Both the position numbers and the translations under genes were made by a program. DNA of 64,000 bases, taken from contig DAIDGV010000015.1 in NCBI GenBank assembly GCA_027452205.1, positions 84,171 through 148,170 of the forward strand, read 5' to 3'. Numbering within the stretch: the first letter of the stretch is position 1; each line of letters begins with the position of its first letter. The notes below the pieces were generated by a model that was given only the letters and a program-made list of their open reading frames with translations, had not been told where the DNA came from and did not search any database. The DNA comes from a candidate division FCPU426 bacterium (lineage in GTDB: Bacteria; Oederibacteriota; Muellerivitia; Muellerivitales; Muellerivitaceae). Shown here in pieces: positions 135 through 36,722 of this stretch.

Positions 135-135
135 G

Positions 136-1599: not shown

Positions 1600-1608
1600 G
1601 GGTTTCCC

Positions 1609-5941: not shown

Positions 5942-5965
5942 GGGTTCCAGGCGATCCGAAATGAC

Positions 5966-5992: not shown

Positions 5993-6085
5993 GATGCAAA
6001 AATCCGGCGAGGAAAGATTGGGACGAGGAATTGTCGTATAAACGGATTTTAAATACCAGCGGGAACTTCACGCCGCCAAGGTTGG

Positions 6086-6451
6086 TTACTTTTGCTTCTC
6101 GACGTAGTTGTGGATCTGGTTCTTGGAGTCCTCATCCAGCACGATGAACTGAAGACCGCAAGTAGTGCCGCTCTTCCAGGCCAGCTTGGCGTAAGCATCG
6201 ACGGTCTTGAACTTTTGGACCTTGAAATTGACCTTGAGGATATCCGTGGGCGAGTTCGTATCGCCCAGTTCGAGGCGGATACCACCTTCGCTGATGTCGT
6301 TCCCCTTGGCAGGAATACCTTTGGATTGGACTTCAAGGATATTTCCGGATTTGGACTGCATGACTGGGTGGATGGTCACATCCCCATCGAACTTGATTCG
6401 GTGGAATTTCCGTTTCTCGTTCTTATCGCTATTGTTGGCGTCGTCTTTCAT
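6086..6451 (-). CDS. PilZ-domain protein (predicted c-di-GMP binding)
   Basis: 121 aa. RxxxR (RKFHR) and DxSxxG (DISEGG) motifs at the canonical spacing. Confidence 0.75.
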   Translation of the reverse strand: MKDDANNSDKNEKRKFHRIKFDGDVTIHPVMQSKSGNILEVQSKGIPAKGNDISEGGIRLELGDTNSPTDILKVNFKVQKFKTVDAYAKLAWKSGTTCGLQFIVLDEDSKNQIHNYVEKQK

Positions 6452-17404: not shown

Positions 17405-18336
17405 TAGAGGATCAATCCTTGTTCTTGTAAGAGTTTCTTGAATTCCAACTGACCCTGGACCTGTTCCGGCCCATAGGTGTAGTCGATGTTCTTTTCCAAG
17501 TATTCCTTGGATTGGGTATGGCGGAACACCCAGATACCTTTGTAGTTGTCCGCCACCTCCGCGAAATGCTTCACCCCTTCGTTCTTCGAGGCCAAGAGGT
17601 CATTCTCGATCTCCCGGGCGATCTGCACATTCCGGGCCATCCAGACGGCATAAACAAAAGGTTTCCCGGTCCGGCTGGTCCATTCGGCTCCTAGGTCGGT
17701 CACGGTCATCCCCGTCGGGGCGGAGATCAAGGCGTTATCTCCGAATTGCAGGGTGGCTTCCCAAGGCTTCACTTGGTTCGGGTGGAAGGTCTTCATGTCC
17801 ACGCTCACCACTTCTAAGTTCTTCACGCCATACCATTTTTTGAGTATCAACTTGGCCAGCAAAACGGAGGTTTGAGAGCGGTCATCCACGAACAAACGTT
17901 CCACGCTCTTCAAAGGACCGTGGGACAAGATGCGGACGCTTTGGACCGGACCCTTCGACGTGATAGCGCCGATGGGGATGATGGTCAAAGAGGGATCCAA
18001 CAAATAAGCCGCGATCGGGGCCAAGGCCACATCCACCTGGGCGGACTTGAGGGCTTTCGCCATATCGATCGGGGCGACTTGGGTTACATGATGGTGCTTG
18101 GCCAATTGCCAGACCAGGGGTTGGGCATTCAAGAAAGGAACGACGGCCACATTCATCGGCTTGGCCTTGAACTCCAGTTCCACCGGAGGCGGAGGAGGAG
18201 GCGCGACAGGGGCCGCAGGAGCGGCGGTGGCGGCCGGAGCGGCAGCAGCGGGTGCGGAAGTAGCGGCAGGCGCCGGGGCCGCAGCAGCGGCAGCAACCGG
18301 TTGGGCTGGTGTATTAGCGTTTTCGGTCATTTTCAT
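17404..18336 (-). CDS. mqnA: MqnA-type menaquinone biosynthesis protein (chorismate dehydratase family) with an Ala/Pro-rich N-terminal extension
   Basis: The core starts NVAVVPFLNAQPLVWQL. No CPND motif of MqnD is present. GAGGA SD sits before the ATGAAAATG start. Confidence 0.7.
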   Translation of the reverse strand: MKMTENANTPAQPVAAAAAAPAPAATSAPAAAAPAATAAPAAPVAPPPPPPVELEFKAKPMNVAVVPFLNAQPLVWQLAKHHHVTQVAPIDMAKALKSAQVDVALAPIAAYLLDPSLTIIPIGAITSKGPVQSVRILSHGPLKSVERLFVDDRSQTSVLLAKLILKKWYGVKNLEVVSVDMKTFHPNQVKPWEATLQFGDNALISAPTGMTVTDLGAEWTSRTGKPFVYAVWMARNVQIAREIENDLLASKNEGVKHFAEVADNYKGIWVFRHTQSKEYLEKNIDYTYGPEQVQGQLEFKKLLQEQGLIL

Positions 18337-18356
18337 TCCTCTTTATAAGGGATAGT

Positions 18357-19475
18357 TCAACGAACAACCGCTTCTTGAAGCATCGGTTTCAACTCTTTGT
18401 ACAGCGTATCCCGTTCCACAGGAATGCGTCCCGCGTCACGGATCAAAGCTTGCAGGTCCTTCGCCGTCATGGCTTCGGGCGAATCCGCCCCCGCCATACG
18501 ATAGATCTTCTCGTCGATAACCGTTCCGTCGATATCGTCCACCCCAAAGGCCAGGGACATTTGGGCCAGTTTCACTCCCATAGAGATCCAATAAGCCTTG
18601 ATGTGGTCGAAATTATCCAGATAGACCCGGCCCACTGCCAGGGTCTTCAGGTCTTCAATACCGCTCGGGCGGGCAAAGTGGTCCATTTGGGTATGGTCCG
18701 GATGGAAAGCCAAGGGAATAAAGGTTTGGAAGCCCTTGGTTTCATCCTGCAATTCACGCAAACGGCGCATGTGATCGACCCGGTGTTCGTACTTTTCGAT
18801 ATGGCCGTACAGCATCGTGGCGTTGGTGCGCATGCCCATCTTGTGGGCCGTCCGGTGTACCGCCAGCCATTGCTCAGCGTTCCCTTTTCCAGGGCATATT
18901 TCTTCACGGACATCCGGATGGAAGATCTCCGCGCCGCCGCCCGGCATGGAACCCAGCCCCGCGGCCTTCAAACGGGTCAGGACTTCCTCGTGGGTCATGT
19001 TGTATTTTTCGGCGAAAAAGTTGATCTCCACGCCCGTGAAACACTTCAAGTGGATTCCGGGCACCGCTTGCTTGAGGATGCGCAACATGTCCTCGTACCA
19101 TTCAAAGCTGTAATTGGGATGGAGCCCGCCAACGATGTGAAGTTCGGTGATACCTTCCAATTCATAGGCTTCCCTGGCTTTGGCGGCCAGTTGCTGATGG
19201 GTGAACTCAAAAGCCCCTTCTTCCCCGGGGAAACGGGAAAAGGCGCAGAACTTACAGGTCGTGGCGCAAACATTGGTGTAATCAATGTGGCGGTTCTTGT
19301 TGTAGTAGGTGTTATTGCCGTTCTTGCGTTCGCGAACGATGTTGGCCATGGCGCCAAGAACATAGAGGTCATTGGTTTGATAGAGACGCAACGCGTCGTC
19401 GTCCGAGACACGGACACCCTTCTCGACCTTGTCGTAAATATCTTTAATTGGTGATTGATCCAACAAACGCTTCAA
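18357..19475 (-). CDS. mqnE: Radical SAM aminofutalosine synthase
   Basis: YYNKNRHIDYTNVCATTCKFCAFSR. I chose the TTG start at 19475, which overlaps the ubiA-like stop as TTGA. The ATG at 19523 is the alternative. Confidence 0.75.
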   Translation of the reverse strand: MKRLLDQSPIKDIYDKVEKGVRVSDDDALRLYQTNDLYVLGAMANIVRERKNGNNTYYNKNRHIDYTNVCATTCKFCAFSRFPGEEGAFEFTHQQLAAKAREAYELEGITELHIVGGLHPNYSFEWYEDMLRILKQAVPGIHLKCFTGVEINFFAEKYNMTHEEVLTRLKAAGLGSMPGGGAEIFHPDVREEICPGKGNAEQWLAVHRTAHKMGMRTNATMLYGHIEKYEHRVDHMRRLRELQDETKGFQTFIPLAFHPDHTQMDHFARPSGIEDLKTLAVGRVYLDNFDHIKAYWISMGVKLAQMSLAFGVDDIDGTVIDEKIYRMAGADSPEAMTAKDLQALIRDAGRIPVERDTLYKELKPMLQEAVVR

Positions 19476-20341
19476 AGCCAAAGGGTTGCTCCTACGACGC
19501 AAAAATAGATAACGGATATCCATCCGTTCAAAGCCATCATTTGCGGGGAAAGAGTGAACTGATAGCTTTTGCCGGTCTTTTCCAAGGAATAAGCCTTGAG
19601 ATGTTGGAAGATCAAGGCCGCGGCAACCAGCGCTAAACCCGCGAAATAGCCTCCGCGAAAGCCCGCTTGAACCCCAAAACCAGCGAGGAATCCTAACATA
19701 CAGGCATGGAAGAATCGAGAGGCATACAAGCTGGCCGGGACACCCCAACGCACTACCCACGATTGAAGGCCCGCTTTTTTGTCAAAAGCCTCGTCTTGGG
19801 TCGCGTACAAAATATCAAAACCCGCTAAAAAGCAAATGACCGCGCCCGTCAACCAAAAGGGTGTCACCGAAAGCTCTCCGGTGGCCGCCACCCAAGCCCC
19901 AACCGGAGCGACCCCCAAGGCCAATCCCAGGAATAGATGGGATGTCCAAGTGAACCGTTTGGTATGGGAATAAAAGAAAAGAATGGCCAAAGCCAGAGGG
20001 GCAAGTTTAAAAGCTAAAGCGTTTAGCGGGTAACAAGCCAATACAAATCCAAATCCACAAAGGACCGTTAAGAGCGCGACTTGAGTCCGGCTGATCCGCC
20101 CCGCCGGAATATCCCGTTTGGCTGTTCGGGGGTTCTTGGCATCCACATCCGCGTCCACCAACCGGTTATAGGCCATCGCCGCCGTACGGGCCAAGACCAT
20201 GCACACAACTACCCAAAAGAGAACATGAAGAGAAGGTTTTCCCCGGGTCGCGGTCAGAAGACTTGCCAAAGCGAACGGAAGCGCGAAGACCGAATGGGGT
20301 AACACCACCAAATTGGAAATGACTTGGAGCTTTTTAAACAT
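19472..20341 (-). CDS. UbiA-family aromatic prenyltransferase (menaquinone pathway, MqnP-like)
   Basis: 289 aa from the ATG at 20341. Polytopic. NRLVDADVD Asp-rich motif. Confidence 0.85.
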   Translation of the reverse strand: MFKKLQVISNLVVLPHSVFALPFALASLLTATRGKPSLHVLFWVVVCMVLARTAAMAYNRLVDADVDAKNPRTAKRDIPAGRISRTQVALLTVLCGFGFVLACYPLNALAFKLAPLALAILFFYSHTKRFTWTSHLFLGLALGVAPVGAWVAATGELSVTPFWLTGAVICFLAGFDILYATQDEAFDKKAGLQSWVVRWGVPASLYASRFFHACMLGFLAGFGVQAGFRGGYFAGLALVAAALIFQHLKAYSLEKTGKSYQFTLSPQMMALNGWISVIYFCVVGATLWL

Positions 20342-20912
20342 TCTTGTGTTTGATTTCCTTCGCTTCTTCGGCACGCCATCGATTCGAGACTTCCGCTTCG
20401 ACCCCTGCGTGGTCATAGACCCGGGCCACGACCGTATCGACCAGTTCTTCGATGGTCTTGGGATTGCCATAAAAACTGGGTGTCGCTGGGATGATGTGGG
20501 CTCCGGCCAAGGTCAGCAATTCCATGTTCTTGATCTGGATGAGGGACAAAGGCGTTTCCCGGGGCACCAGGATCAGCTTACGGCTCTCTTTAAGGAACAC
20601 TTCCCCAGCGCGGGTGATGAGGTTATCGGCAATACCGTGGGCCATCTTGCCCAAAGTAGCGGTGGAGCAAGGGATAACTACCATGGCCTCGAACTTGTTC
20701 GAGCCGCTGGCTACCGGAGCGGTCAGATCTTTTTCGTCCCATTCTTTGACGTGGGGCGGCAGGTTCAGCCCACCTTCATGGGAAGCTACGATCTGGGCGG
20801 ATTTGGAAACGGCCGCGTGCACTTCCCAATCGTCATACGGAAAGTGTTGGAAGAACCGGCGGGCATAAATGGTTCCCGACGCCCCCGTGACCGCGACAAA
20901 GATCTTCTTCAT
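20334..20912 (-). CDS. ubiX: Flavin prenyltransferase UbiX
   Basis: 192 aa. MKKIFVAVTGASG N-terminus. UbiX-like throughout. Confidence 0.9.
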   Translation of the reverse strand: MKKIFVAVTGASGTIYARRFFQHFPYDDWEVHAAVSKSAQIVASHEGGLNLPPHVKEWDEKDLTAPVASGSNKFEAMVVIPCSTATLGKMAHGIADNLITRAGEVFLKESRKLILVPRETPLSLIQIKNMELLTLAGAHIIPATPSFYGNPKTIEELVDTVVARVYDHAGVEAEVSNRWRAEEAKEIKHKNV

Positions 20913-20921
20913 GTAAATCCT

Positions 20922-21611
20922 TTACTTACGAACAGCGACCACGCTATGGGCCACACCCATGGTGCGGCTTTCAATATGAACATCCTTGAAGCCATTCTTT
21001 TCCAAAAGTTGTTTGAATTCCTTCACGCTGACAAAGCCCTTGGCTGAATCCCTCAAGTAATTGTAGGCATCCTTGTCCTTAGAAATTGCCCCGCCCCGCA
21101 TGGGCATAATGGCATTCACATAGACCACGTAAGAAAGCCCAGCCAAGAGGCCTGTGGGTTTGAAGAACTCCAGAACGACCGCTTTCCCTCCTGGGCGCAG
21201 CATACGGGCCATTTCCTTCACGCCCTTTTCGAGCGAATCCAGATTGCGCATCCCGAAACCGCAAACCACCGTATCGAAGGTCATGTCCGGAAAAGGCAGT
21301 TTCAAAGCGTCCGATTCCACATAAGCAAGGCCCGTTTGAGCTCCGCCCTTGTTCTTGGCCAAAACCAGCATGGGCTTGGAAAAATCAGCAAGAACCACTT
21401 GGGCGTTAGGGGCTTTTTCCTTCACCACTAGGGCAAAATCACCGGTGCCGGCACAAAGGTCCAATACCTTCGAAGGCACGAAGCCATCCTTCATCATTTG
21501 AGCAACCGAGCTTTTGCGCCAGGAAATGTCTTGGTTGAAAGACAGGCTGTGGTTGGCCTCGTCATAGGTCCCGGCGATGCGTCCGAACATGCTTTGGATC
21601 TTCTGGCTCAT
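20922..21611 (-). CDS. ubiE: Demethylmenaquinone/ubiquinone methyltransferase
   Basis: 229 aa. F(G)RIAGTYDEANHSLSF start and the SAM motif VLDLCAGTGD. Confidence 0.9.
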   Translation of the reverse strand: MSQKIQSMFGRIAGTYDEANHSLSFNQDISWRKSSVAQMMKDGFVPSKVLDLCAGTGDFALVVKEKAPNAQVVLADFSKPMLVLAKNKGGAQTGLAYVESDALKLPFPDMTFDTVVCGFGMRNLDSLEKGVKEMARMLRPGGKAVVLEFFKPTGLLAGLSYVVYVNAIMPMRGGAISKDKDAYNYLRDSAKGFVSVKEFKQLLEKNGFKDVHIESRTMGVAHSVVAVRK

Positions 21612-21633
21612 TTCAATTCCTTTAATGGGTTGT

Positions 21634-23082
21634 TCAAAGAAGGCCGTATTTTTTCAGGATAGGCATTACTTTGTCTTCGACCTTTGGGTCCATGGTCAGT
21701 TCATCGGGCCAATCCCGATTGAAACCCTCTTCTTTCCATTTTTTGGTCGCGTCGATACCGATCTTGCCGCCCCAGCCCCACATGGGCGAGGTATGGTCGA
21801 GAACATCAAGCGGGCCTTCGGAAATGAGAACATCCCGTTTGGCGTCCATGCAATTGCCTACCCGCCAAAGGACTTGACCGTAATCGTGGACATTGGTGTC
21901 TTTATCCACCACGATCAGGATCTTGTTGAGCATCATCTGCCCCAGGCCCCAAAGGGCGAACATGACCTTACGGGCATGCATGGGATATTGTTTGTCGATG
22001 GAAACAATGGCCAGGTTGTGGAACACGCCCTCGACCGGCAACTCCACGTCCACGATCTCCGGCAGCACCTTTTGCATCAGAGGCAGGAACAACCTTTCGG
22101 TGGCTTTGCCCAAATAGCCGTCTTCCATGGGGGGCTTGCCCACAATGGTGGTCATATAGATAGGGTTCTTGCGACGGGTAATACAGGTGATATGGAACAC
22201 CGGATATTGGTCCGCCAGGCTGTAGTAACCCGTATGGTCCCCAAAGGGACCTTCGGTGCGGCGCTCGCCCGGTTCCACATAACCTTCCAGAACGAAATCC
22301 GCGTCCGCATGGACCATCAGGTCCACTGTCTTACACTTCACCAGTTCGACCGGTTTTTTGCGAAGGAACCCGGCGAACAAAAGTTCATCAATACCTTCCG
22401 GCAAAGGGGCTGTGGCCGCATAGGTCAAACAGGGATCGCCGCCCAAAGCCACCGCCAACTCCAAACGTTTGCCCGCTTTTTCGGCTTTACGGTAATGCCC
22501 AGCGCCTCCGTGGTGAACTTGCCAATGCATCCCGGTGGTTTGACCGTCATAGACCTGCATGCGATACATCCCGATATTGCGGATCTCCGATTCCGGGTCC
22601 TTGGTATAGACCAGGGGGAAGGTAATGAAGCGTCCGCCATCGTCGGGCCAGCATTTGAGGATCGGCAATGTGGTCAAGTCCGGCTTGGTCTCCACCACTT
22701 CCTGGCAGGCGCCTTTGGAAACTTCCACCGGCGGGAACTTGGCCACCTCGGCCAGTTTGGGCAAGAACTTCAGTTTATCCACAAAGCCCTTGGGCGGTTT
22801 GAGCTCTAAGAGTTCTTTGATCTCGGCGGCGTGCTCTTCCAGGTTTTCTACACCCAACGCCCAACTCATGCGTTGGTAAGACCCAAAAGCATTGATCAGA
22901 AGAGGAAAAGAACTGCCCTTAGGCTTTTCGAACAGCAGGGCTTTGCCGCCCTGGGGGGATTTGGAAACCTTATCGACGATGGCTGTTACTTCCAGGACCG
23001 GGTCTACCTCATCGGTGATCCGAATCAATTGGCCTTTTTTTTCAAGGAATTCGACGAATTCAGTTAGTGAGGAATAAGCCAT
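21634..23082 (-). CDS. UbiD-family (prFMN-dependent) decarboxylase, menaquinone-associated
   Basis: 482 aa. UbiD-like throughout. First gene of the cluster. Confidence 0.9.
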   Translation of the reverse strand: MAYSSLTEFVEFLEKKGQLIRITDEVDPVLEVTAIVDKVSKSPQGGKALLFEKPKGSSFPLLINAFGSYQRMSWALGVENLEEHAAEIKELLELKPPKGFVDKLKFLPKLAEVAKFPPVEVSKGACQEVVETKPDLTTLPILKCWPDDGGRFITFPLVYTKDPESEIRNIGMYRMQVYDGQTTGMHWQVHHGGAGHYRKAEKAGKRLELAVALGGDPCLTYAATAPLPEGIDELLFAGFLRKKPVELVKCKTVDLMVHADADFVLEGYVEPGERRTEGPFGDHTGYYSLADQYPVFHITCITRRKNPIYMTTIVGKPPMEDGYLGKATERLFLPLMQKVLPEIVDVELPVEGVFHNLAIVSIDKQYPMHARKVMFALWGLGQMMLNKILIVVDKDTNVHDYGQVLWRVGNCMDAKRDVLISEGPLDVLDHTSPMWGWGGKIGIDATKKWKEEGFNRDWPDELTMDPKVEDKVMPILKKYGLL

Positions 23083-26525: not shown

Positions 26526-28208
26526 CTATTGTCCCGGTTTGGTGCTGGGCGGTGTCACCTTGTCGATATTCTCGTTTGCCGTTTTGGCCTTAGGATCGAT
26601 CTTCAAGGCCGCTTGATAACTTTGATAAGCCAAGTCCGGCTCACCCAGGTGATATTGGTAGATGACCCCCAGCAAACAATAGGTCTCCGTGTAATAGAAA
26701 CTGGGCGTGGTCGGGTCATGCGCGTCGATCACCTGACGCAATTTTTTGACCGCCGATTCATAGTGCCCCTTCTCGAAGTCGTCTTCCGCTTCCCAATACT
26801 TCCCTTCGATAGGGGTCGTAGTCGCGTCGATCTCGTGTTTGAGCTTCAACGCCGTTTCGGTGGTCGGATCGATCTTCAAGGCCGCATTGCAGAATTGGTG
26901 GGCCAAGAAGTGGTTCGGAAGGTCGAACTTGTAAACGACACCGATCATGGCGCAGGCCTCGGCGTAGAAGAAGGGCTGTACGGTCGGGTCCTTGAGGACG
27001 ATGGCCTTGAACCAGTTATCCAGGGCCTCGGGATAATTCTTGGCCACATAAGCTTGGATACCGGCCCGGTAATATTCCATGAAAGACTTGGCTGGCACCG
27101 GTGTCGGCGGCGCCTGGACGGGGGTCAAAACCGGCATAGGCGGCGTGGGCGCGATTGTCGGCGCTGGGGAAGGCTTGGGCGTTGGCGTAGGGGTCGCTTC
27201 CGTGCCCAATTGCACGCTCAACTCGATCTGGTTCGTGTTGCCCAGGTCGCCGAGGGTCATGAAAGAATAATCCAACTGCAGGTCACCAAAACGCAATCCC
27301 GCGCCGGCGGTCAGGCCCGTCACCCCGGTCAGGTCCTGGGTATTGATGAAGCGATAACCCGCCCGGATGGCCAAAAGCCCCTTGTACCAATATTCCCCCC
27401 CAAAACCCACATTGGTGAATTGATTGTTGGTCAGGAGCAGGTCCGACTCACTGGCTAAGGTCAGATAATGCTGTTTTGGCTTTGCATCGAACCAGATCTG
27501 GCCCGAGACCGCTGTTTTCAATACCAAAGGCAAAAGTGAATTGTCGATATTGAATCCTAAGTTGGACAGAACTGCCGATAACACCAAGGGGCTTTGGGGC
27601 ATTTGATAAAGGAGACCCGCGTCCAGGGAAGCGGTCTGGTCCGGCTGGCTCTGTTGGATATTGTCGTAAATGAAATGGCCGGTCAACCCGGCGTGCAGGC
27701 CCATTCCCAGGTTCGTGCCAAAGGCCGCGAAGCCGTTCACCGCCATGGGCGTATAGCTACCCGTGGGGACCAGATTTGGACCGACGACGTTATAAGTGGA
27801 GATCGACCCGAAGTTGATGTAATCCCCACCGACAGAAAAGCCCGACCCGCCCTCGGCCAAGGTGAACGCGAAATGATCCAAGGAAAGGTTCTGGATCCAA
27901 AAACTGTGGGAGGCCGTCAAATAGGTCCCACCCAACAATCCAAGTCCCGCCGGGTTCAGGACCGCTTCATCCACCGTGTCCGGTACGGCCCCCATGGCCT
28001 CGGCCATGGCCCCATCTCTGGCGTTGTCCGGGATCCGGAGCCAGCTGGTCCCCATATTGACCGGGGCCGATTGGGCACGAAGCATCGGAACGTTCAAACC
28101 CAGGACGAGGATAAGGAGTAGACAGGCTTGAGACTTTTTCAGTATCAATGGACCTTTCGATATATGACGGCCGATCGCTTGAAAAAGATGATAACAGGCG
28201 TTCCTCAT
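26526..28208 (-). CDS. PorV/PorQ-like outer-membrane beta-barrel fused through a Pro/Thr linker to a C-terminal TPR-like domain
   Basis: The N-terminal WLRIPDNARDGAMAEAMGAVPDTVDEAVLNPAGL resembles the PorV-family motif. Beta-rich to about residue 335, PT linker 336-374, then two TPR-like units each ending ALKIDP. The ATG overlaps the upstream stop as ATGA. A TTG start about 20 codons further in is possible. Confidence 0.65.
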   Translation of the reverse strand: MRNACYHLFQAIGRHISKGPLILKKSQACLLLILVLGLNVPMLRAQSAPVNMGTSWLRIPDNARDGAMAEAMGAVPDTVDEAVLNPAGLGLLGGTYLTASHSFWIQNLSLDHFAFTLAEGGSGFSVGGDYINFGSISTYNVVGPNLVPTGSYTPMAVNGFAAFGTNLGMGLHAGLTGHFIYDNIQQSQPDQTASLDAGLLYQMPQSPLVLSAVLSNLGFNIDNSLLPLVLKTAVSGQIWFDAKPKQHYLTLASESDLLLTNNQFTNVGFGGEYWYKGLLAIRAGYRFINTQDLTGVTGLTAGAGLRFGDLQLDYSFMTLGDLGNTNQIELSVQLGTEATPTPTPKPSPAPTIAPTPPMPVLTPVQAPPTPVPAKSFMEYYRAGIQAYVAKNYPEALDNWFKAIVLKDPTVQPFFYAEACAMIGVVYKFDLPNHFLAHQFCNAALKIDPTTETALKLKHEIDATTTPIEGKYWEAEDDFEKGHYESAVKKLRQVIDAHDPTTPSFYYTETYCLLGVIYQYHLGEPDLAYQSYQAALKIDPKAKTANENIDKVTPPSTKPGQ

Positions 28209-30340
28209 CGTGACACCACGATCTTCTGGAAGGTCGTACCATTACTGCCATCTTGGTAGTTCAACTTGACGCGGGCCAGATAAATTCCGGGAGAAAGCCC
28301 GGTGATATTCCACGAGGGTTGATAAGGACCCGCTGCGGTCCAATGGACCATCGATTCCCCCACCCAATCAAAAATATCCACCTGACAGGACAGGATTGGT
28401 TTGTCCGGGAATAGGATCAAATTCCCACCTGGAGCCACCGGCACCGGTCCCAACACCACTTTTCCTAATCCCGAAAGGTCCTGGGTAATGGTGGGCGTAG
28501 CACTGGGTGTGGTCAAAGTAGTAACGGTGTTGGTCTGCGTTTGGGTAGCGGTCGCCGTACAGGTGGCGGTATTGGTGTTCAGGGGAGTATTGGTCGAGGT
28601 TGGGGTCGAGCTGCTCGTGGCCGTGCTGGTCGAGGTCGAACTGCTGGTCTGGGTATTGGTGGCCGTCTGGGTCGAGGTGTTAGTGGCCGTATTGGTGCCG
28701 GTATTAGAAACCGTACTGGTAGCCGTATTGGTCGCGGTATTGGTCGAAGTGTTCGTTGAAGTGTTGGTCGAGGTATCCGTGGACGTATTAGTTGAGGTAT
28801 TTGTAGCGGTGTTGGTGGCCGTGTTGGTTTGGGTATTCGTGACCGTACTGGTGTTCGTGCTGGTATTGGTCGCAGTATTGGTTGAAGTATTAGTGAAAGT
28901 ATTGATGGCCGTATCGGTATTTGTGGCCGTATTGGTAGCGGTGTTTGTAGAGGTTTGGGTCGAAGTATTGGTCTGCGTATAGGTTACCGTATTGGTGTTG
29001 GTACTTGTCGCGCTGTTCGTGGCTGTGTTGGTCGCGGTGTTCGTCGATGTCGATGTGGCTGTCGCGGTATCCGTCGATGTATCGGTGCCCGTATTGGTGG
29101 CGGTATTTGTGGCGCTATTCGTCGCCGTGTTCGTCGAGGTATCGGACGATGTTGCGGTTTGGGTATTGGTCACCGTGTTGGTGTTGGTGGCCGTATTGGT
29201 CGATGTATTCGTGGCACTATTCGTTGCCGTATCGGTCGAAGTATCGGTCGAGGTGCCGGTAGCGCTGTTCGTTGCCGTATTGGTGGCCGTATTGGTAGCT
29301 GTCGATGTATCGGTGCCCGTGTCGGTCGCCGTATTGGTCGCCGTATTGGTCGAGGTGTTGGTCGCCGTATCGGTGACCGTACTGGTGTTCGTTGCGGTAT
29401 TGGTCGCCGTTGATGTGGAAGTGCTGGTCGATGTGCTGGTAGCCGTATTGGTTGAAGTGGCCGTCTGTGAATTAGTGACCGTCGCCGTGTTCGTTGCGGT
29501 ATTGGTGGCGGTCTGGGTGCTGGTCGCCGTGCAAGTATTCCCTTTAGGAGGGACGATGACGTAGGACTGGTTGTTATTGAAAAGTTGGTAGAACTGACCA
29601 CTGTTGTAATAGCCCGTCGCCCCAGCCGTACCTGTCAGGCTGATGTTCAGATAATACTCGACCAAAAGATAGTTACCGTTGGTGTTATAAGGCGGTTGGG
29701 ACGTCGTGAAAGTGACGTTGACACCCGGGTCCGTATAGTAGTTACCGCCAACGCCGCCGGTCTGCTGGGTTACCGGCGAACCGACCGCCGTGAAAAGTTG
29801 GGTCACAGCCGAACCGGTATAAGCGTAAACAGCCACCATTGGTTGATAACTGAAGGTCACCGAACCTGTGCCAATGAAGGCCGCGCCAAGGTTGTATTCA
29901 TAATTTGTGCTAAAGGTCCAGGTCCCGCCGCCAACGTCATAACCAATGGTACTGGGCATTTCCCAACCATAACCTTGGGCCGTTCCTGAGGGAGGCGTGG
30001 TATTCAACGCGGGACTATTGGTGGCACCCGGTTCGAATAAGTAATAGTTATTGTATGGAACTGTTAATGGGGAGCCAGAGGAACCGGCCAAGGGATAGAC
30101 GATCTCCGTGATCAGCGACTCATCAAAGGACCCATCTTGAGTCCCACCTGCGACAGTGCTCAGATCGTAATAATCAGTGCTGGCATGTTGGGGATTTGTC
30201 GTGCCATTGGTCAGGTAATAAGTGGTTTGAGCGTAGAGGGATGGGACCGTTGCCGAGAAGAGACAAAAAAAGGTTAAACGAATCGCCAAAAAACGATTCG
30301 AGCGGTTGGTGTAGATTGAACGGAATTTGTCGGCAACCAT
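28205..30340 (-). CDS. Secreted 711-aa protein: unknown N-terminal domain, 352-residue Thr-X array, T9SS-type/FlgD-Ig-like C-terminal domain
   Basis: Signal-like N-terminus ending SLYAQ. The C-terminus ...GLSPGIYLARVKLNYQDGSNGTTFQKIVVSR resembles Por secretion tail domains. Confidence 0.8.
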   Translation of the reverse strand: MVADKFRSIYTNRSNRFLAIRLTFFCLFSATVPSLYAQTTYYLTNGTTNPQHASTDYYDLSTVAGGTQDGSFDESLITEIVYPLAGSSGSPLTVPYNNYYLFEPGATNSPALNTTPPSGTAQGYGWEMPSTIGYDVGGGTWTFSTNYEYNLGAAFIGTGSVTFSYQPMVAVYAYTGSAVTQLFTAVGSPVTQQTGGVGGNYYTDPGVNVTFTTSQPPYNTNGNYLLVEYYLNISLTGTAGATGYYNSGQFYQLFNNNQSYVIVPPKGNTCTATSTQTATNTATNTATVTNSQTATSTNTATSTSTSTSTSTATNTATNTSTVTDTATNTSTNTATNTATDTGTDTSTATNTATNTATNSATGTSTDTSTDTATNSATNTSTNTATNTNTVTNTQTATSSDTSTNTATNSATNTATNTGTDTSTDTATATSTSTNTATNTATNSATSTNTNTVTYTQTNTSTQTSTNTATNTATNTDTAINTFTNTSTNTATNTSTNTSTVTNTQTNTATNTATNTSTNTSTDTSTNTSTNTSTNTATNTATSTVSNTGTNTATNTSTQTATNTQTSSSTSTSTATSSSTPTSTNTPLNTNTATCTATATQTQTNTVTTLTTPSATPTITQDLSGLGKVVLGPVPVAPGGNLILFPDKPILSCQVDIFDWVGESMVHWTAAGPYQPSWNITGLSPGIYLARVKLNYQDGSNGTTFQKIVVSR
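28481..29536 (-). repeat. Coding low-complexity array: about 176 consecutive Thr-X dipeptide periods
   Basis: Hand count of residues 269-620 gives position 1 of each period as Thr 163 times, Ser 10, Leu 2 and Ile 1, with no register shift. All four ACN codons are mixed. Confidence 0.85.
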
Positions 30341-30440: not shown

Positions 30441-31016
30441 TCAACCCGCACCCTGGTCCTGACGGACCACAAAATAGGCGCCTAGAATCAGCAATAATCC
30501 CCCCACCGCTGGGGCCCAAAGCCAGGCGAGCCCCGGCTGAAGGTACAAATTGAGCCAGGCCATATAGCTGACCGCCCAGCCCACACCCATGGCAAACCGC
30601 ATGGACCGTTCCCCCAACCGGGGGGATATCCAACCCGCCCCATAGGCGGCCATAGCGAAACCCACGCCAAAAAGATGGAGGTCGGCCATGTGCTTGATGA
30701 ACATCTCCGCGCTGTCACCCCGGGCGGAGATGAGCGCCAACCAAACAAAACACCATAAGAGAAGCCAAAGGATGGCCAAAAGGGACAATCCATGGGTGAC
30801 ATACATCCACGTTTGGTTATTTCTCTCGACCCACGAGGGTCTCAAAGACAACAGGATCGCCCCCACGGTCGCCGCGAAACCAAAAAGGATCAGGACCGCT
30901 GGCCACTGGGCCGAGCCATTCTTAAGGTCCGCCGCCAGGGGTTCGTTCCAAAAAACACCTGCCGTCAAAAGAAGCCCCAAAGCCCCGATGCGGTAAAGAT
31001 AGTATCCCCACTTCAT
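30441..31016 (-). CDS. Polytopic membrane protein, unknown function
   Basis: 191 aa from the ATG at 31016, which overlaps the truA stop as ATGA. About 6 hydrophobic segments. Confidence 0.6.
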   Translation of the reverse strand: MKWGYYLYRIGALGLLLTAGVFWNEPLAADLKNGSAQWPAVLILFGFAATVGAILLSLRPSWVERNNQTWMYVTHGLSLLAILWLLLWCFVWLALISARGDSAEMFIKHMADLHLFGVGFAMAAYGAGWISPRLGERSMRFAMGVGWAVSYMAWLNLYLQPGLAWLWAPAVGGLLLILGAYFVVRQDQGAG

Positions 31017-31801
31017 TCCGCTTCCTCTTTTACCCATTTTTTGATCTTAGGGAATTTTGTCGGATAAAAGACCTCGACCAGGAAAAGCCCGGTCGGCGGT
31101 AAGGTAGGACCCGCTTTCTTACGGTCTTTCGACTTGAGGATTTGTCTAATGTCCTCTGGGCGCAGTTTACCCAAACCAACGTACATCAGCGTGCCGCTAA
31201 GGATTCGGATCATTTGATGAAGGAAAGAGACGCCGGTATATTCCAAGACGATGTCTTTCCCCTGGGTCTTGATCTGGATCTTGTGTATTGTCCTTTTGGG
31301 ATTCGCCTTTTTTCCTAACGTGCCGCGAAAAGCGGTGAAGTCGTGGGTTCCTACCAAATACTTGGCAGCCTTACGCATAGCCGCTACGTTGAGCAAAGGC
31401 CGGACATGATGATAGGTATTGCGGTCGAAGACCGTGTAATCCGCCGAATTGCGGATGACATATCGGTACAGTTTTCCCTTGGCGTGATAAGTGGCATGAA
31501 AGGTATCCGGCACCACTTGAGCTTTCACGATACGGATGTCATGGGGCAAAAGACGGTTCAGGACATCCTGGATCTTGGCGACGGGAAGGTTGGAGCTGGT
31601 ATGGAAATTGGCGGTCTGGCCCAGGCCATGGACCCCGGCGTCGGTACGCCCCGCGACCAAAAGATCCACCGGATGGCCGCAAACATGTTGGAGCCTGTTC
31701 TCCAAAGTACCCTGCACCGTCTCGGCCTGGGCTTGCTTTTGCCAGCCCGAATAAGCGGTTCCATCGTATTCGACCGTCAGGCGGATGTTGCGGGTCTTCA
31801 A
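31013..31801 (-). CDS. truA: tRNA pseudouridine(38-40) synthase
   Basis: 262 aa. RLTVEYDGTAYSGWQ and GRTDAGVH motifs. The TTG start overlaps the upstream stop as TTGA. Confidence 0.9.
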   Translation of the reverse strand: MKTRNIRLTVEYDGTAYSGWQKQAQAETVQGTLENRLQHVCGHPVDLLVAGRTDAGVHGLGQTANFHTSSNLPVAKIQDVLNRLLPHDIRIVKAQVVPDTFHATYHAKGKLYRYVIRNSADYTVFDRNTYHHVRPLLNVAAMRKAAKYLVGTHDFTAFRGTLGKKANPKRTIHKIQIKTQGKDIVLEYTGVSFLHQMIRILSGTLMYVGLGKLRPEDIRQILKSKDRKKAGPTLPPTGLFLVEVFYPTKFPKIKKWVKEEAE

Positions 31802-34032
31802 GAGGCCTTCCTGTGCTCCTGGACCTCTTGCATCCGCTCGATCACGCTGACCCCTTTTTGCGCGATGGGTTCCTGGGGATTCAGGTTCAAGGCCGCTTGA
31901 TAGGACGAACGGGCGTCACTGTAATCCTTCATCCCGAAAAAGGCGTCGCCCAACCGGGCGTATAGATGCGGATCCCCTGTTCCGTTAGCCCGTTGCAGGG
32001 CCGTCTGGAAACTATTCACCGCGCTCTCGGGCCTTCCCAATGCCATATAGGTCTCGCCCATCATGGCGTAGATCCGTGCGAAGGTTTGGGGCTGGCGGTA
32101 CTTCAAGGCGTTCTCGAAACTCCATAGGGCGATATTGGGCATTTTGTTCACGAGGCAGAAATAACCGGTAAAATCGTAACCGATCCCGTAAGAATCCCGC
32201 ATGACGTCACTATATTCATCCCAATAACCACGGTCATCGGGATTCAAGTTCCTTAACCGGTAAGTGTCCCACAAAACATTCAACTCGCGGGTCGTGAAGC
32301 TATAGCTCATATCTTTAGTGGCGATGATGCGCCAAAGGAACCCCACCGGGATCGCCGGATCCTCTTTTTGCATCCAGGGGGCGGTGAAGATGTTGGTGAA
32401 GTAGAAAGACCGGTCTTTGGCGTGTTGGCGGATCATATCCTGGACCACCGTTTCGGGCCTCACATCATAGCCTACCGGCACCTTCAAGAAGGGCCACCGT
32501 TTGAACATGGGATCCCGGTACCAGTCGTAAGGGATAAGCTGCATGGTGAAACTGACCACCTCGGGCCTTTTCCCTTCCACGTTCTGAAGGTACCAAAGGG
32601 GCAGGATATCGATATCACCGTTACAAATGATGACCCCGTCCCGGTCGACCGTCTTAAGCATATTGAGCCCCTCGTCGTATGAGCTCACATAGCGGCTTTG
32701 GTCCACCGCTTGGTAGACCACTTGACCGTCCGGCCCGACCTTATCGGTCGCCATGTAATTGAGGATCAAGGGCATCAGGCCAAAGCTCAAACAAAAGGCT
32801 GAAGTGAAGAGCGGAACATAATAGTAAGGCCACTTTTTGGAGAGTCCTTCACAAAGACCCGCCATACCCAAGGCCGCGAATATAGCGATCACCAGGAAGA
32901 CCGGCGTGAAGAAGTTATCCAGCGTCCACTGATAACCTTCCAGAGGATTGTTGAAAAGAATGATGCCCCAAAAGACCCCGGCACCCAGAAAGAAGAAGCC
33001 AAGCGCGTCGGACCACTGTTTCTTTTTCCAGAACCAAATGAAACCAAAGATGGCCAAAGTGTAAAGAAGGAAGCTGAACCCGCCTCCGAACTGATGTTCG
33101 GCGTGCATCCAAAAACGCTTCACGTTACGGACAACAGTGACCATGGAACGCACATCGCCCGTACCCAAATAACCTTTCCGGATCACCGTACCCCATAACC
33201 GGTCCAAAGTTTGAGGATCCCACCAATTGATGATGGGGTTTTGGATGGCCCGTAACGGCAAGTACAAATAGACGGATAAAGCCAAAAGTCCAACGGTGAA
33301 AGCGCGAATGATATTCGCCATTCCAAAAGTGGACAGGACATTCCTGACCTTCTCAAAAAGATCGAAGGGGCGGAACAAAGAGCGGAGGATCTCCGGGAAA
33401 GGAACGCGTTTCTGCGAAGCGAAAAAGAACCATAAATAGGCTGGTGCCATGACGATTTGGTTCGGCCAGTGGTGGGTCAAGCTCATCCCGTACAGGAACC
33501 CCATCAAAAGGAATGATTTGATATACCAGCTCTTCTCCCTCATTTTGAAGAAAAGGAAGAGCATGGCCACGGTCAGCAGGGTGTTCAAGGTATAGATGCC
33601 GCCCTTTGCCCCACAGGCCTGGAACCATTGCTGATAAGAAAAAGCGAACACCAAAGCCCCAAAAACCGACGGGATCTCCCATAACCAAGCGCCCGGTTGC
33701 TGGTCTTCCGACAAGGTCTCCCCGCTCGGGGAGATAAAAACCTTTTGAAGCATCATTTTGAGGATCCAGTAAACGAAGACCACCGCCACGGTCGCGGTCA
33801 TCATGGAACTGAAGGTTACCCGCAGCATGGGCTGGCCCAGGGGCAACAAACAGTTCACGCGGCCCCAGAGGGTATGCAGGGGATACCCGGGTGAGTGACT
33901 GATGGTCAACTTATCGCAGACCATAATGGTCTCGCCGGAATCGTTGATGTTAAAGGAGGCGCAATGGGTCAGGAGATAAAAGAGGAACGTGAAGAAAAAG
34001 AGGAAAGCCGGGATAAGAGAAGGCAGTAACAT
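31798..34032 (-). CDS. DUF2723/TMEM260-like GT-C-fold membrane glycosyltransferase with a C-terminal TPR domain
   Basis: 744 aa. NDSGETIMVCDKLTISHSPGYPLHTLWGR matches the DUF2723 N-terminal motif from memory. Many TM segments. TPR repeats in the last ~150 aa. Confidence 0.8.
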   Translation of the reverse strand: MLLPSLIPAFLFFFTFLFYLLTHCASFNINDSGETIMVCDKLTISHSPGYPLHTLWGRVNCLLPLGQPMLRVTFSSMMTATVAVVFVYWILKMMLQKVFISPSGETLSEDQQPGAWLWEIPSVFGALVFAFSYQQWFQACGAKGGIYTLNTLLTVAMLFLFFKMREKSWYIKSFLLMGFLYGMSLTHHWPNQIVMAPAYLWFFFASQKRVPFPEILRSLFRPFDLFEKVRNVLSTFGMANIIRAFTVGLLALSVYLYLPLRAIQNPIINWWDPQTLDRLWGTVIRKGYLGTGDVRSMVTVVRNVKRFWMHAEHQFGGGFSFLLYTLAIFGFIWFWKKKQWSDALGFFFLGAGVFWGIILFNNPLEGYQWTLDNFFTPVFLVIAIFAALGMAGLCEGLSKKWPYYYVPLFTSAFCLSFGLMPLILNYMATDKVGPDGQVVYQAVDQSRYVSSYDEGLNMLKTVDRDGVIICNGDIDILPLWYLQNVEGKRPEVVSFTMQLIPYDWYRDPMFKRWPFLKVPVGYDVRPETVVQDMIRQHAKDRSFYFTNIFTAPWMQKEDPAIPVGFLWRIIATKDMSYSFTTRELNVLWDTYRLRNLNPDDRGYWDEYSDVMRDSYGIGYDFTGYFCLVNKMPNIALWSFENALKYRQPQTFARIYAMMGETYMALGRPESAVNSFQTALQRANGTGDPHLYARLGDAFFGMKDYSDARSSYQAALNLNPQEPIAQKGVSVIERMQEVQEHRKAS

Positions 34033-35894: not shown

Positions 35895-36722
35895 TTAAGG
35901 AATATTGGTCATGGCGCTGGCTTCATAACTTCTTTTTTCGGCCATAGCTTCGATGAAACAAAGGTAATTTCCCGCCGGCATGGGCCTGTCTTCCTCATCC
36001 TTCCCATCCCAATAGATCTCGTGTTCTCCGGGGTTCAGATTTTCCCCATGTTCATGCTTATCGTAATTGAACTGGCGCACCAGCCGGAATCCGGTCGTGA
36101 AGATCTTCACGTCCACCTCCTTGGCTTTGAAGGTAGAATCCCACTTGAACTTGATCTTGCCGTCCGGCTCGGGCTTGGCTGAAACCGTGAACCAAACCAC
36201 ACCGGGCGTCGAAGTAAGGGTCGGGGTCATGGTGTAGGTCGGTGTGAAGGTTTTGGTCGGAAAAGTACCCGTTACGGTGGCCGTGTTGGTGTGGGTCGCG
36301 GTTGGCGTATTGGTTTTGGTCGGCAAAGTGCCTGTGGCGGTTTCGGTAGGAGTGTTGATGGTCGGTGTCGGGGTGATGGTAAAAGTATGGGTGGCTGTAA
36401 AGGTGTGGGTAGGGGACGGGGTGAAAGTATATGTTGGCAAAGTGCCTGTCACGGTCGGCGTATAGGTTTTCGTCACTGTAAAGGTCTTTGTGATCGTAAA
36501 TGTCCGAGTGAAGGTGGCGGTATAGGTATTGGTCGGCCGGGTTCCCGTTGCCGTACAAGTAAAGGTATTGGTCGGCGTATAAGAAGGGGTATATGACGGC
36601 GTGAAAGTATTCGAAGGAGCTACCATCGTCCAAGTTGCCGAATTGGCAGGAGCGTTGGTCGGCACAGTTTGCGCGTTCGAAAAAGCGGTGACCAATAAAA
36701 AAATAAAAAAGTACTTTTTCAA
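35895..36722 (-). CDS. Secreted Thr-X repeat protein with a FlgD-Ig-like/T9SS-type C-terminal domain
   Basis: 275 aa. TTG start with GGGAGAG SD. Signal peptide ending FSNAQ. TxT array over residues ~38-173. The C-terminus contains [28 protein letters not shown]. Confidence 0.8.

Follow-up and report, generated by a model that had tools for sequence, protein, structure and literature searches.

Pro-Thr (PT) and Thr-rich linkers of glycoside hydrolases, like mucin-like PTS sequences, are non-globular, length-variable and often O-glycosylated; typical PT linkers span 20-60 residues. Serine-rich repeat glycoproteins of Gram-positive cocci (e.g. SraP, GspB and Fap1) carry far more extended arrays in which a hydroxy-amino acid alternates (SASASAST type), and these form the heavily O-glycosylated stalk of a fibrillar adhesin. 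In staphylococcal adhesins, SdgA/SdgB glycosylate a stalk of Ser-Asp dipeptides (PMC3794999), and this O-glycosylation of the hydroxy-amino acid guards the array against proteases (PMC3794999, PMC8561734). Anchoring of a different kind is known from T9SS, in which PorU retains an uncleavable C-terminal sorting domain (CTD) and sits on PorV, while PorZ sits on PorQ (PMC5562754); in type B systems, a PorP-like protein next to the CTD cargo anchors it, and a PorE-like protein is often found alongside (PMC9143113).

Here, we describe a gene that appears to combine a dipeptide stalk with an anchor of the second kind. It lies in 64,000 nucleotides from a candidate division FCPU426 bacterium (GCA_027452205.1, contig DAIDGV010000015.1, positions 84,171 to 148,170; hereafter the window), and encodes a 711-aa protein on the minus strand (28205..30340). 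Its single unbroken 2136-nt ORF carries a signal peptide, an N-terminal head, a (Thr-X)n or TX dipeptide array and a CTD in one frame, and this whole-gene architecture is common to homologues of the protein. We propose, with a probability of about 0.6, that the array serves a CTD-anchored fibrillar cell-surface protein of this uncultured peat and mine-drainage organism as its stalk or brush.

The gene is largely invisible to annotation. The automated call for the window (P0124) comprises the last 83 aa only, starting at V629, which is why an exact-product look-up returned no recorded product identical to the 711-aa protein; a 51-nt query had 0 exact matches in GTDB genomes. Pfam and NCBIfam scans of the full-length protein found no match, and the CTD was detected only when scanned alone. 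Related genes are recorded as C-terminal fragments of 68-161 aa although the true proteins are 500-2000 aa long, and at two or more loci spurious opposite-strand ORFs, encoding (Val-X)n, have been called across the arrays.

Residues 1-37 (30230..30340, minus strand), read by eye, form a Sec-type signal peptide with a basic n-region, a hydrophobic core and likely cleavage between LYA and QT; AlphaFold pLDDT is below 50 over residues 1-35, and the mature N-terminus QTTYY(L/F)T is conserved in the homologue alignment. The head that follows (residues 38-268; 29537..30229, minus strand) is an orphan, with no Pfam or NCBIfam match, no matches in a word-index homology search and only 5 relatives in an exhaustive search of 1.84 billion representative proteins. 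AlphaFold, given a 5-sequence alignment, models it as an all-beta jelly-roll of 13 strands (pTM 0.71), and Foldseek matches it, with low TM (0.2-0.36), to sandwiches of the jelly-roll and sugar-binding types.

The array occupies residues 269-620 (28481..29536, minus strand; residue 269 at 29534-29536 and residue 620 at 28481-28483). A recount gave precisely the figures of an earlier, sequence-only reading of this DNA – 352 residues in 176 periods, with T163, S10, L2 and I1 at the first position – and likewise found no register shift. Up to 105 periods in succession have strictly T or S at this position, and P is ~1e-81 for at least 163 of 165 Thr lying in one parity (composition-preserving hypergeometric test). 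The X residues are N53, A42, S38, Q11, D10, V7, G4, P4, C2, T2, Y1, F1 and I1, and X itself has a period of two, giving a sub-period T-N-T-[A/S] that the earlier reading lacked (X identity 0.38 at lag 2 vs 0.20 expected, and 0.09 at lag 1). K, R, E, H, M and W are all absent, F and Y occur once each, and the charge consists of 10 Asp; T and S together account for 213 of the 352 residues (61%), and G and P for 8, with Pro alone contributing 4.

All four Thr codons are interleaved (ACC82, ACG48, ACA17, ACT16), as had been noted, and their usage does not differ from that of nine neighbouring genes (chi-square p=0.32); adjacent periods share the same codon at a frequency of 0.33-0.36, vs a random expectation of 0.36. 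Nor is the DNA a simple tandem repeat, again as claimed, since TRF finds only weak, degenerate periods of 12, 36, 48 and 102 nt with 66-76% matches. The suggestion of a periodicity maintained at the protein level is supported: usage at third positions has been scrambled to background, but 93% of T-position codons still read ACN and thus Thr. Thr outnumbers Ser 16:1 at this position, though Ser is common at X. The scrambled codons and the 16:1 ratio indicate that selection keeps Thr at the T positions.

The unbroken register itself is not special. TRF periods in three arrays are all multiples of 6 nt, and an orthologue on a peat contig differs from the window gene by indels of 18 and 66 nt; indels and repeat units that are all multiples of 6 nt explain the register, and this mutational cause is sufficient. 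With register shifts rare across the whole TX class (0.41 per 100 periods), special selection for an unbroken register is unnecessary. The peat orthologue is carried whole by an independent 30.7-kb contig, is ~85-90% identical to the window gene over the aligned pieces and shows a net difference of 48 nt, whereas 100%-identity contigs from two mine-drainage runs reach the edges of the array gene only. By these comparisons the array length is partly confirmed.

Two Cys-containing motifs were said to begin and end the array. Both exist, with TCTATSTQT (C270; residues 269-277, 29510..29536, minus strand) at its start and TCTATATQT (C594; residues 593-601, 28538..28564, minus strand) lying 27 residues short of its end; one S/A replacement sets them apart, and their other differences are synonymous. 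There is also a Cys where head and array meet in three homologues of the N-terminal domain and at loci L086 and L091, and one near the array end in P0003 and P0001. The roughly five TVTN-x-QT units reported earlier correspond to TVTxxQT-type motifs at residues 287, 321, 389, 451 and 499, with an irregular spacing of 17-34 periods.

The array is followed by a T9SS-like CTD (residues 621-711; 28205..28480, minus strand) of a distinct subfamily with the pattern GKVVLGPVPV..LFPDKP..PGIY..QKIVVSR. Its match to the T9SS type A sorting domain TIGR04183 lies just under the cut-off (E 1.7e-4; 21.5 bits vs 23), and that to PF18962 lower still (E 5e-3; 17.4 bits vs 27). AlphaFold predicts a beta-sandwich with strands over residues 639-709 (pLDDT 60-82), a fold resembling the solved Ig-like seven-strand beta-sandwich CTDs; Foldseek matches include the CTDs of NucA (8glk_D, TMt 0.66) and RemA (8gl6_D, TMt 0.56) within a list that also holds many generic FN3/Ig matches. 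The best PDB match of the CTD profile is the PorU CTD (E 0.0026), and the domain shares 49-58% identity with its counterparts at the Firestonebacteria loci described below. To our knowledge, the FCPU426 lineage is outside the phyla with an established T9SS, and none of the window ORFs scanned gave an at-threshold match to the T9SS core components SprA/Sov, PorK/L/M/N, PorT or PorU.

Immediately downstream is a partner gene (26526..28208, minus strand) whose start overlaps the stop of the TX gene (ATGA, read directly). It encodes a predicted outer-membrane barrel of the PorV/PorQ family, followed through a Pro/Thr linker by a TPR domain at the C-terminus (residues 508-540). The match to NF033709 (PorV_fam) scores 109 bits, above the cut-off of 90, and covers profile positions 5-325 of 326, while the equivalog models are failed by wide margins (NF033710, PorV, 50.1 vs 250 bits; NF033711, PorQ, 70.8 vs 220). 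On these profile scores the partner is a member of the PorV/PorQ family and an orthologue of neither PorV nor PorQ. Five cassette partners score 105-119 bits against PorV_fam, to which every partner scanned belongs. The tails are TPR or TPR-like in the window, L084 and L086, and an OmpA peptidoglycan-binding domain in L085, L090 and L092, the OmpA region of L090 giving a sub-threshold PorE-family match (84.9 bits vs a cut-off of 600). Periplasmic TPR and OmpA modules are of the kinds attributed to PorE in T9SS descriptions. A barrel dedicated to the CTD protein suggests, by analogy (PMC5562754), that the CTD may be retained rather than cleaved for PorU to link the protein to anionic LPS, as would be expected of type A cargo.

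About 18 loci carry this two-gene cassette; they belong to FCPU426, to Candidatus Firestonebacteria or to unbinned metagenome contigs. The first eight comprised the window locus, L089-L092 and three loci of a single Candidatus Firestonebacteria MAG, to which about ten were added from metagenomes. A CTD gene is followed by a PorV-type partner in every related locus with a long enough contig, except L104, where the sole PorV match is upstream of the CTD gene. The in-frame arrangement of head, array and CTD recurs in at least 12 independent loci, with arrays of ~7 (L104), 176 (window), 193 (L084), at least 409 and up to 612 (L091) periods. The heads are unrelated, being the orphan jelly-roll, an L-type lectin (PF18483), SBBP repeats or a small domain, or are missing altogether. 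P0003, the closest homologue with the full architecture, lacks a PorV gene beside it, and its CTD is closer to the usual type A. The genomic position of the cassette is not conserved, because nine FCPU426-type loci around leuB lack both the head and the PorV partner, and only a small FlgD_ig TX protein is syntenic in them.

Similar arrays are widespread, a database search returning at least 1978 proteins, so that the window array is not unique; unbroken tracts of 176 or more periods occur in 28 of the 122 proteins inspected. TX-class arrays link enzymes of families GH5/8/9/16/18/28/30/53, and proteases, to CTDs, and their commonest X is Pro. Pro makes up 2% of X in the window array, vs a class median of 20%. 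The window also encodes the FlgD_ig protein, of 275 aa, with a TX array of its own. Literature searches for long Thr-X arrays found nothing.

Glycosylation of the array is probable by analogy with described stalks, with Thr as the likely O-linked residue. The mucin-like or PTS pattern is seen in a secreted sequence with 61% T+S and degenerate repeats of 12-102 nt, with Pro nearly absent, unlike classical PTS. A candidate TMEM260-like (DUF2723) GT-C membrane glycosyltransferase with TPR repeats (31798..34032, minus strand; PF11028, E 8e-29) is encoded 1.5 kb upstream of the TX gene on the same strand, and a second GT-C-like membrane protein, with a weak Agl23 match, at 45286..47535. Because no glycosyltransferase occurs among the ten neighbouring ORFs scanned at the Firestonebacteria loci L084 and L086, the TMEM260-like gene is a lead and not part of the cassette, and its linkage to the cassette is unsupported. 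The Bacteroidota O-glycosylation motif D[ST][AILVMT] occurs only 4 times. N-glycosylation was set aside, as there are only 12 N-X-S/T sequons; they are few because N-T-A, the prevailing unit, does not make one.

The preferred reading thus takes the following form. The signal peptide would direct Sec export, after which the T9SS-like CTD, recognised from sequence and predicted fold, would carry the protein across or onto the outer membrane. There the CTD would be bound non-covalently by its cognate PorV/PorQ-family barrel, in analogy to PorU-PorV and PorZ-PorQ and as the observed gene pairing suggests, and the periplasmic TPR of the barrel protein (OmpA in relatives) would tie the anchor to the envelope. 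The 352-residue array would serve as an extended, hydrophilic, protease-poor spacer, ~110-120 nm long if fully stretched, that projects the jelly-roll head away from the cell; a chain of no globular fold is suggested by single-sequence AlphaFold and by composition. Beta-branched Thr at every second residue may stiffen the chain, with probable O-glycans on the same residues, and register would be preserved mainly through growth and shrinkage of the array, by slippage or duplication, in 6n-nt units. Of the features of a fibrillar adhesin, a stalk and an anchor are present, the head is weakly similar to sugar-binding sandwiches, and relatives have L-type lectin heads. Several observations fit this reading less well: the array is unusually Pro-poor, which weakens the analogy with stiff Pro-Thr linkers and makes a beta-prone or self-associating state possible; C270 and C594 could turn the array into a closed loop, a shape not expected of a simple rod; and the CTD falls short of the TIGR04183 cut-off.

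The headless L084, which consists only of a signal peptide, a 193-period array and a CTD, tells against the preferred reading in that its array has no head to project and so must do more than act as a spacer, and it raises the prospect that the array is itself the functional part, a dense hydrophilic glycocalyx-like brush or coat held by the CTD and PorV-like pair, with heads optional. Three paralogous cassettes in a single Firestonebacteria MAG, and arrays of up to 612 periods, far beyond what is needed to clear the outer membrane, would suit such a coat. Against it, most complete members carry a binding-type head (lectin, SBBP repeats or jelly-roll), and L104 and L106 have hardly any array; we consider it unlikely. 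That the array is instead a plain, unmodified, flexible low-complexity linker, neither glycosylated nor specially rigid, is quite unlikely, although the same array type joins many unrelated enzymes to CTDs, the FlgD_ig protein of the window and its syntenic orthologues use TX arrays of variable length with register shifts, P0007 tolerates a shift in every repeat unit, and the neighbourhoods of L084 and L086 offered no glycosyltransferase. Such a linker would not account for the preference of Thr over Ser (163:10) at the periodic position in spite of scrambled codons; hundreds of residues far exceed ordinary interdomain linkers, and on a cell in peat or mine drainage proteases would readily attack an unprotected, unstructured chain of 350-1200 residues.

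The sequence-only reading had left a mucin-like stalk and an ice-binding Thr face as options that it could not tell apart. The stalk has gained from the array's position between a globular head and the CTD, its variation from ~7 to 612 periods beneath unrelated heads or none and the AlphaFold result; the ice-binding face finds no support. In its broadest form – a solenoid, a ribbon closed by C270 and C594, or a cross-beta fibre, with an all-Thr face binding ice, mineral or polysaccharide – the array as a regular beta structure would follow from strict alternation, which puts all Thr on one face of a strand, from a Pro-poor composition rich in Asn, Ala and Ser, and from the flanking Cys motifs; the top PDB sequence matches are the antifreeze protein 4dt5 (TxTxTxT; E 0.13) and, weakly, the SraP adhesin, both non-significant. 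Yet the only periodicities are of 2 and 4 residues, where ice-binding coils repeat every ~12-19 aa, the TVTxxQT motifs are irregularly spaced, and regular positions for turns or a core are lacking. AlphaFold gives residues 269-620 a pLDDT of 23-29 and no strands or other secondary structure, which is weak evidence as a single-sequence model, although the same run folds the CTD. Elsewhere Pro is common (22% of X class-wide, 27% in L090 and 15% in L092), lengths vary by arbitrary numbers of periods with register shifts tolerated, L084 has no flanking Cys, and the source habitats, peat and mine drainage, are not specifically icy, so that a beta structure is very unlikely. An artefact, whether a mis-assembled repeat or non-coding or opposite-strand sequence, we regard as extremely improbable: the gene call from V629, the breaking of short-read contigs inside such arrays (a run of N in L090; contig ends within the array in L094, L096 and L099-L102) and the identical contigs that cover only its edges would fit one, but the ORF joins signal peptide, head and CTD in frame as at least 12 loci do, the 30.7-kb orthologous contig spans the array with two indels, and opposite-strand (VX)n ORFs across it are broken into pieces.

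A bolder extension, which we offer as a possible if rather doubtful one, is that Goldbacteria/FCPU426, Firestonebacteria and related bacteria may build a hitherto overlooked surface layer. Its elements would be rods or brushes of (Thr-X)n with a length of 0.1-0.4 micrometres, each docked by a specialised, retained CTD to its own PorV-family barrel and bolted to the envelope via the fused OmpA or TPR. Strict Thr alternation would then be a structural code, for a glycan-bearing rod or a Cys-closed Thr-faced ribbon, and the system would have gone unseen through gene calls cut to the last ~80-160 aa and opposite-strand (Val-X)n ORFs called across the arrays. If the stalk reading is right, the head, dipeptide-stalk and anchor design of Gram-positive adhesins extends to diderm candidate phyla, with a different chemistry (Thr-X) and a different anchor (a CTD and a PorV-family barrel fused to OmpA or TPR). 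T9SS-type sorting modules would then also act as self-contained cargo-anchor cassettes beyond Bacteroidota, which bears on the evolution of T9SS attachment. There would be an annotation blind spot as well, with surface proteomes of these lineages under-counted because 500-2000-aa proteins are recorded as truncated fragments; standard tryptic metaproteomics would miss the arrays because they have no Lys or Arg.

Among described systems, ice-binding proteins share with the array alternating Thr on a strand (Rhagium AFP, 4dt5, and Tenebrio AFP) or glycosylated Thr in a short-period repeat (fish AFGP, (Ala-Ala-Thr)n), but the solenoids and sandwiches are built of coil-length repeats, complete with turns and a core, and the AFGP repeat is three residues long; the array has none of this. 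PT linkers differ in scale and regularity, TX arrays running from 352 to more than 1200 residues with a strict two-residue period, and the window array is almost Pro-free. Serine-rich repeat glycoproteins resemble it in their very long alternating arrays and fibrillar stalks; they are Ser-based rather than Thr-based, and have an LPXTG anchor, accessory Sec and cytoplasmic glycosyltransferases in the locus, none of which is found here.

There is a close likeness in design with the staphylococcal Ser-Asp adhesins (ClfA, SdrC/D/E; PMC3794999, PMC8561734), which likewise have a signal peptide, an N-terminal head and a C-terminal anchor signal, and a strict dipeptide array that serves as a length-variable stalk and is built of degenerate 6n-nt units with mixed codons. 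The TX protein departs from them in its Thr-X dipeptide with a variable, mostly uncharged X, in its diderm host and in having no sequence homology to them, and its glycosylation is proposed where theirs is described. It has no LPXTG, no match to an MSCRAMM A domain and no Ser-Asp repeat, and therefore lies outside the SD-repeat (Sdr/Clf) family, whose members are functional analogues only; in place of LPXTG and sortase, its anchor would be a T9SS-like CTD and a PorV-family barrel. In this respect the cassette resembles PorU-PorV, PorZ-PorQ and the type B/PorP pairs of T9SS (PMC5562754, PMC9143113), where a CTD protein is encoded beside its own T9SS-family barrel. It is set apart from type B systems by a barrel of the PorV/PorQ family rather than PorP/SprF and by the fusion of TPR or OmpA modules to that barrel in one polypeptide, and from T9SS of Bacteroidota by its occurrence in FCPU426 and Firestonebacteria.

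The TX gene is a single ORF on the reverse strand (28205..30340) coding for 711 residues, in which a predicted signal peptide and a head domain precede a Thr-X (TX) array and a C-terminal domain (CTD). Recounting from the assembled sequence places the array at residues 269-620 (28481..29536, reverse strand, mapped from the ORF) and agrees exactly with the sequence-only reading: 176 two-residue periods, with Thr in 163, Ser in 10, Leu in two and Ile in one at the periodic position, and no register shift. The parity bias of Thr has a chance probability of about 1e-81 in a composition-preserving test. The X residues are N53, A42, S38, Q11, D10, V7, G4, P4, C2, T2, Y1, F1 and I1; the array lacks K, R, E, H, M and W, includes Phe and Tyr once each and Asp ten times, and has no regular turn or core positions in its sequence. 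A second layer, not previously seen, is that X alternates too, as T-N-T-[A/S], with X identity of 0.38 at lag 2 and 0.09 at lag 1 (expected 0.20).

All four Thr codons are interleaved, as had been claimed (ACC82, ACG48, ACA17, ACT16), with usage no different from that of nine neighbouring genes (p=0.32). Codon sharing between neighbouring periods is at chance level (0.33-0.36 vs 0.36), and is slightly raised at a lag of 17 periods, reflecting an old 102-nt duplication. Because the codons are scrambled at background usage while 93% of those at T positions are still ACN, synonymous sites are saturated and selection on the protein preserves Thr, which bears out the proposal that the periodicity is maintained at the protein level. 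At the periodic position Thr outnumbers Ser 16:1, a bias suggesting a role for the beta-branched side chain, which could lie in backbone extension, transferase specificity, or both.

The register itself needs no such selection. A 30.7-kb peat metagenome contig carries an orthologue of the TX gene, about 85-90% identical over the aligned pieces, with shifts of 18 nt and 66 nt in the alignment offset inside the array and a net difference of 48 nt. Tandem-repeat periods in the window and at two related loci, L084 and L091, are 12, 24, 36, 48, 78, 84, 102, 126 and 342 nt – the 342-nt unit being present in L091 as three copies with 90% identity – and all are multiples of 6. Arrays thus grow and shrink by whole dipeptides, keeping register without selection on it. 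Nor is continuity essential, since each repeat unit (TGTVNTST) of the protein P0007 brings one register shift and its CTD and partner are nonetheless the same.

Long TX arrays are common, and taken by itself this one is unremarkable within a large class that has been little described. A full-protein search yielded at least 1978 significant proteins among 8000 scored candidates, with arrays fused to GH5/8/9/16/18/28/30/53 enzymes, kumamolisin- and subtilisin-type proteases, lectins and SLH domains, and also joined to FlgD_ig or Por_Secre_tail C-termini. Unbroken tracts reach at least 100 periods in 93 of the 122 sequences inspected and at least 176 in 28 of them, with a maximum of 274; the window array is not unique. 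These sequences show 0.41 register shifts per 100 periods, so the unbroken register in the window is about as predicted. Pro is the commonest X across the class (22%), and the window array is a mid-sized, unusually Pro-poor member.

The window has a second TX-array protein of 275 aa (35895..36722, reverse strand), directly downstream of leuB. Behind its signal peptide comes an array of about 70 periods, in which X is hydrophobic or Pro and the register shifts repeatedly at GT[LRF]PT, and the protein ends in a FlgD_ig domain (PF13860, E 1.3e-6). It is syntenic in seven FCPU426-type loci (L001-L006 and L009), which differ in array length and sequence. The window also carries leuA/leuB, asd, secY and rpoA, and is therefore ordinary chromosome and not a mobile element. 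A menaquinone-related run (16331..23082, reverse strand) includes two radical-SAM CofH/MqnC-type genes, VitK2_biosynth (MqnA-type), UbiA prenyltransferase and UbiD, a set that we take to be the futalosine route.

The 231-aa head has no family match and only five relatives among 1.84 billion representative proteins, which were searched exhaustively; with these relatives as alignment, AlphaFold predicts an all-beta jelly-roll (pTM 0.71), which in Foldseek has only a loose likeness to known jelly-roll and sugar-binding sandwiches. The last 91 residues score just below the cut-off for the T9SS type A sorting domain TIGR04183 (E 1.7e-4, 21.5 bits, cut-off 23). This CTD is modelled as a beta-sandwich even from a single sequence, and the prediction superposes on the CTDs of NucA (TMt 0.66) and RemA (TMt 0.56), both from T9SS complexes; the best sequence match of a CTD profile among solved structures is the PorU CTD. 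The next gene (26526..28208, reverse strand), whose start lies within the TX stop codon (ATGA), encodes a PorV/PorQ-family outer-membrane barrel, above the curated cut-off, joined to TPR repeats by its own Pro/Thr-rich linker, TEATPTPTPKPSPAPTIAPTPPMPVLTPVQAPPTPVP, at about residues 335-375.

This two-gene cassette recurs elsewhere, as traced by searches with the PorV-like partner and with the CTD, and then with a CTD profile. One Candidatus Firestonebacteria MAG has three loci (L084-L086) with a TX-array protein and a PorV-family gene immediately after each, and their CTDs are 49-58% identical to that of the window. The organism of the window falls in candidate division FCPU426 by its LeuB, which shares 93% identity with that of a bog MAG. 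One study argued for assigning the FCPU426 16S cluster to candidate phylum Goldbacteria, with Firestonebacteria and Elusimicrobia as the closest phyla (PMC7031533). The metagenome locus L091 (JGI 3300021027, Ga0206836_10192) has a 2007-aa cargo ORF (244..6264, forward strand) with an L-type lectin head (PF18483), a 612-period unbroken tract at residues 690-1912 (607 T/S) and the same CTD, followed by a PorV-family gene. The L092 array has at least 351 periods and that of L090 is broken by an assembly gap. Among twelve more metagenome loci, there are arrays cut off by the contig end after at least 196 to at least 409 periods, as well as minimal cargoes of about 7 (L104; Ga0181520_10046917, 3467..3889) and about 19 periods (L106; Ga0209208_10196039, 20..802). 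Array length thus spreads about a hundred-fold in the family, and its place is always between head and anchor. Wherever the contig continues, a PorV-family gene directly follows the CTD gene, the exception being L104, where the only PorV match is upstream of the cargo gene; all five partners scanned exceed the PorV_fam cut-off. Partner tails are TPR or TPR-like in the window, L084 and L086, and instead have one or two OmpA peptidoglycan-binding domains in L085, L090 and L092, with an extra FlgD_ig domain between barrel and OmpA in L085. Cargo heads bear no relation to one another and comprise the orphan jelly-roll, a lectin, SBBP repeats and a small domain.

These proteins are poorly represented in databases. 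The CTD profile gathers 28 protein clusters, almost all of which stand in the annotation as pieces 79-161 aa long, and records of cassette cargoes are truncated C-terminal pieces of 68-161 aa. The window's own call (P0124, 28205..28453, reverse strand), among these clusters, has 83 aa and starts at a GTG at V629. On the forward strand, two shadow ORFs encoding (Val-X)n stretches, 193 and 190 aa long (28401..28982 and 28992..29564), lie over the array, and in L091 and L092 the public calls across the arrays are on the opposite strand, so gene callers misread the shadow frame as coding. Systematic mis-annotation is one of three additions made here, with the cargo-plus-PorV-anchor cassette and arrays of up to 612 periods.

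The sequence-only reading had offered a glycosylated stalk or a Thr-faced, possibly ice-binding beta-structure. For this Pro-poor array, whose ends carry matching Cys motifs, the latter keeps a low probability. These motifs are real, as are the TVTxxQT motifs: TCTATSTQT (residues 269-277; 29510..29536, reverse strand) at the start and TCTATATQT (residues 593-601; 28538..28564, reverse strand) near the end, differing by synonymous changes. Cys is also found at the head/array boundary in the homologues P0001, P0002 and P0003 and in L086 and L091, and close to the array end in P0001 and P0003; the mature protein has three (270, 594 and 652), and the array might conceivably be closed into a loop by a disulfide. 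A Thr face fails on each feature tested: the array lacks a coil-length period, relatives frequently have Pro at X and tolerate register shifts, and the sequence match to an antifreeze protein in the PDB falls short of significance. The structure prediction that had been suggested returns no fold, with array pLDDT of 23-29 and no secondary structure in a single-sequence AlphaFold model in which the CTD does fold.

From this model, together with composition, length variation and position between head and anchor, we conclude that the array probably forms the stalk or brush of a surface protein, extended and not globular, with a calculated length of about 110-120 nm if fully stretched. An assembly artefact is unlikely, given at least 12 independent loci with in-frame continuity and a peat contig that spans the orthologue's array. 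Two alternatives are live: a plain unmodified linker, and a coat that works independently of any head. The latter is suggested by the cargo of L084 (Candidatus Firestonebacteria JABDGD010000002, 5349..6995, forward strand), which is headless. It consists of a signal peptide, 193 array periods with a higher-order repeat of 126 nt (42 aa) that includes SN[IL]TSTFT, and the CTD, which hints that function can reside in the array as such.

For the stalk, glycosylation is a lead only, since no GT-C gene was found in ten ORFs scanned beside two Firestonebacteria cassettes. In the window, a TMEM260-like/DUF2723 GT-C glycosyltransferase with TPR repeats (31798..34032, reverse strand; PF11028, E 8e-29) is encoded 1.5 kb upstream of the TX gene, and a second GT-C-like polytopic membrane protein with a C-terminal TPR-like region (45286..47535, reverse strand) has a weak Agl23/GT-C-like match (E 4e-5); both are large polytopic proteins and possible periplasmic protein O-glycosyltransferases. 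The second gene also explains why the stretch at 46-48 kb stands out by its AT skew and low GC. The gene that separates truA from the TX gene (30441..31037, reverse strand) encodes a multi-pass membrane protein of 198 aa that matches no family; the peat contig spanning the cassette carries an orthologue.

The TX protein would be exported, by a route that we infer, and would dock through its retained CTD onto the cognate PorV-family barrel, which its TPR or OmpA domain presumably secures to the envelope. As precedent we take PorU, which sits on PorV and whose CTD is uncleavable and so retained, and likewise PorZ, which sits on PorQ (PMC5562754). The array, presumably a stiff chain, is likened to the Ser-Asp dipeptide stalks of staphylococcal adhesins, in which O-glycosylation protects from proteases (PMC3794999); we take these as precedent too, the modification being theirs and only presumed for the TX array.
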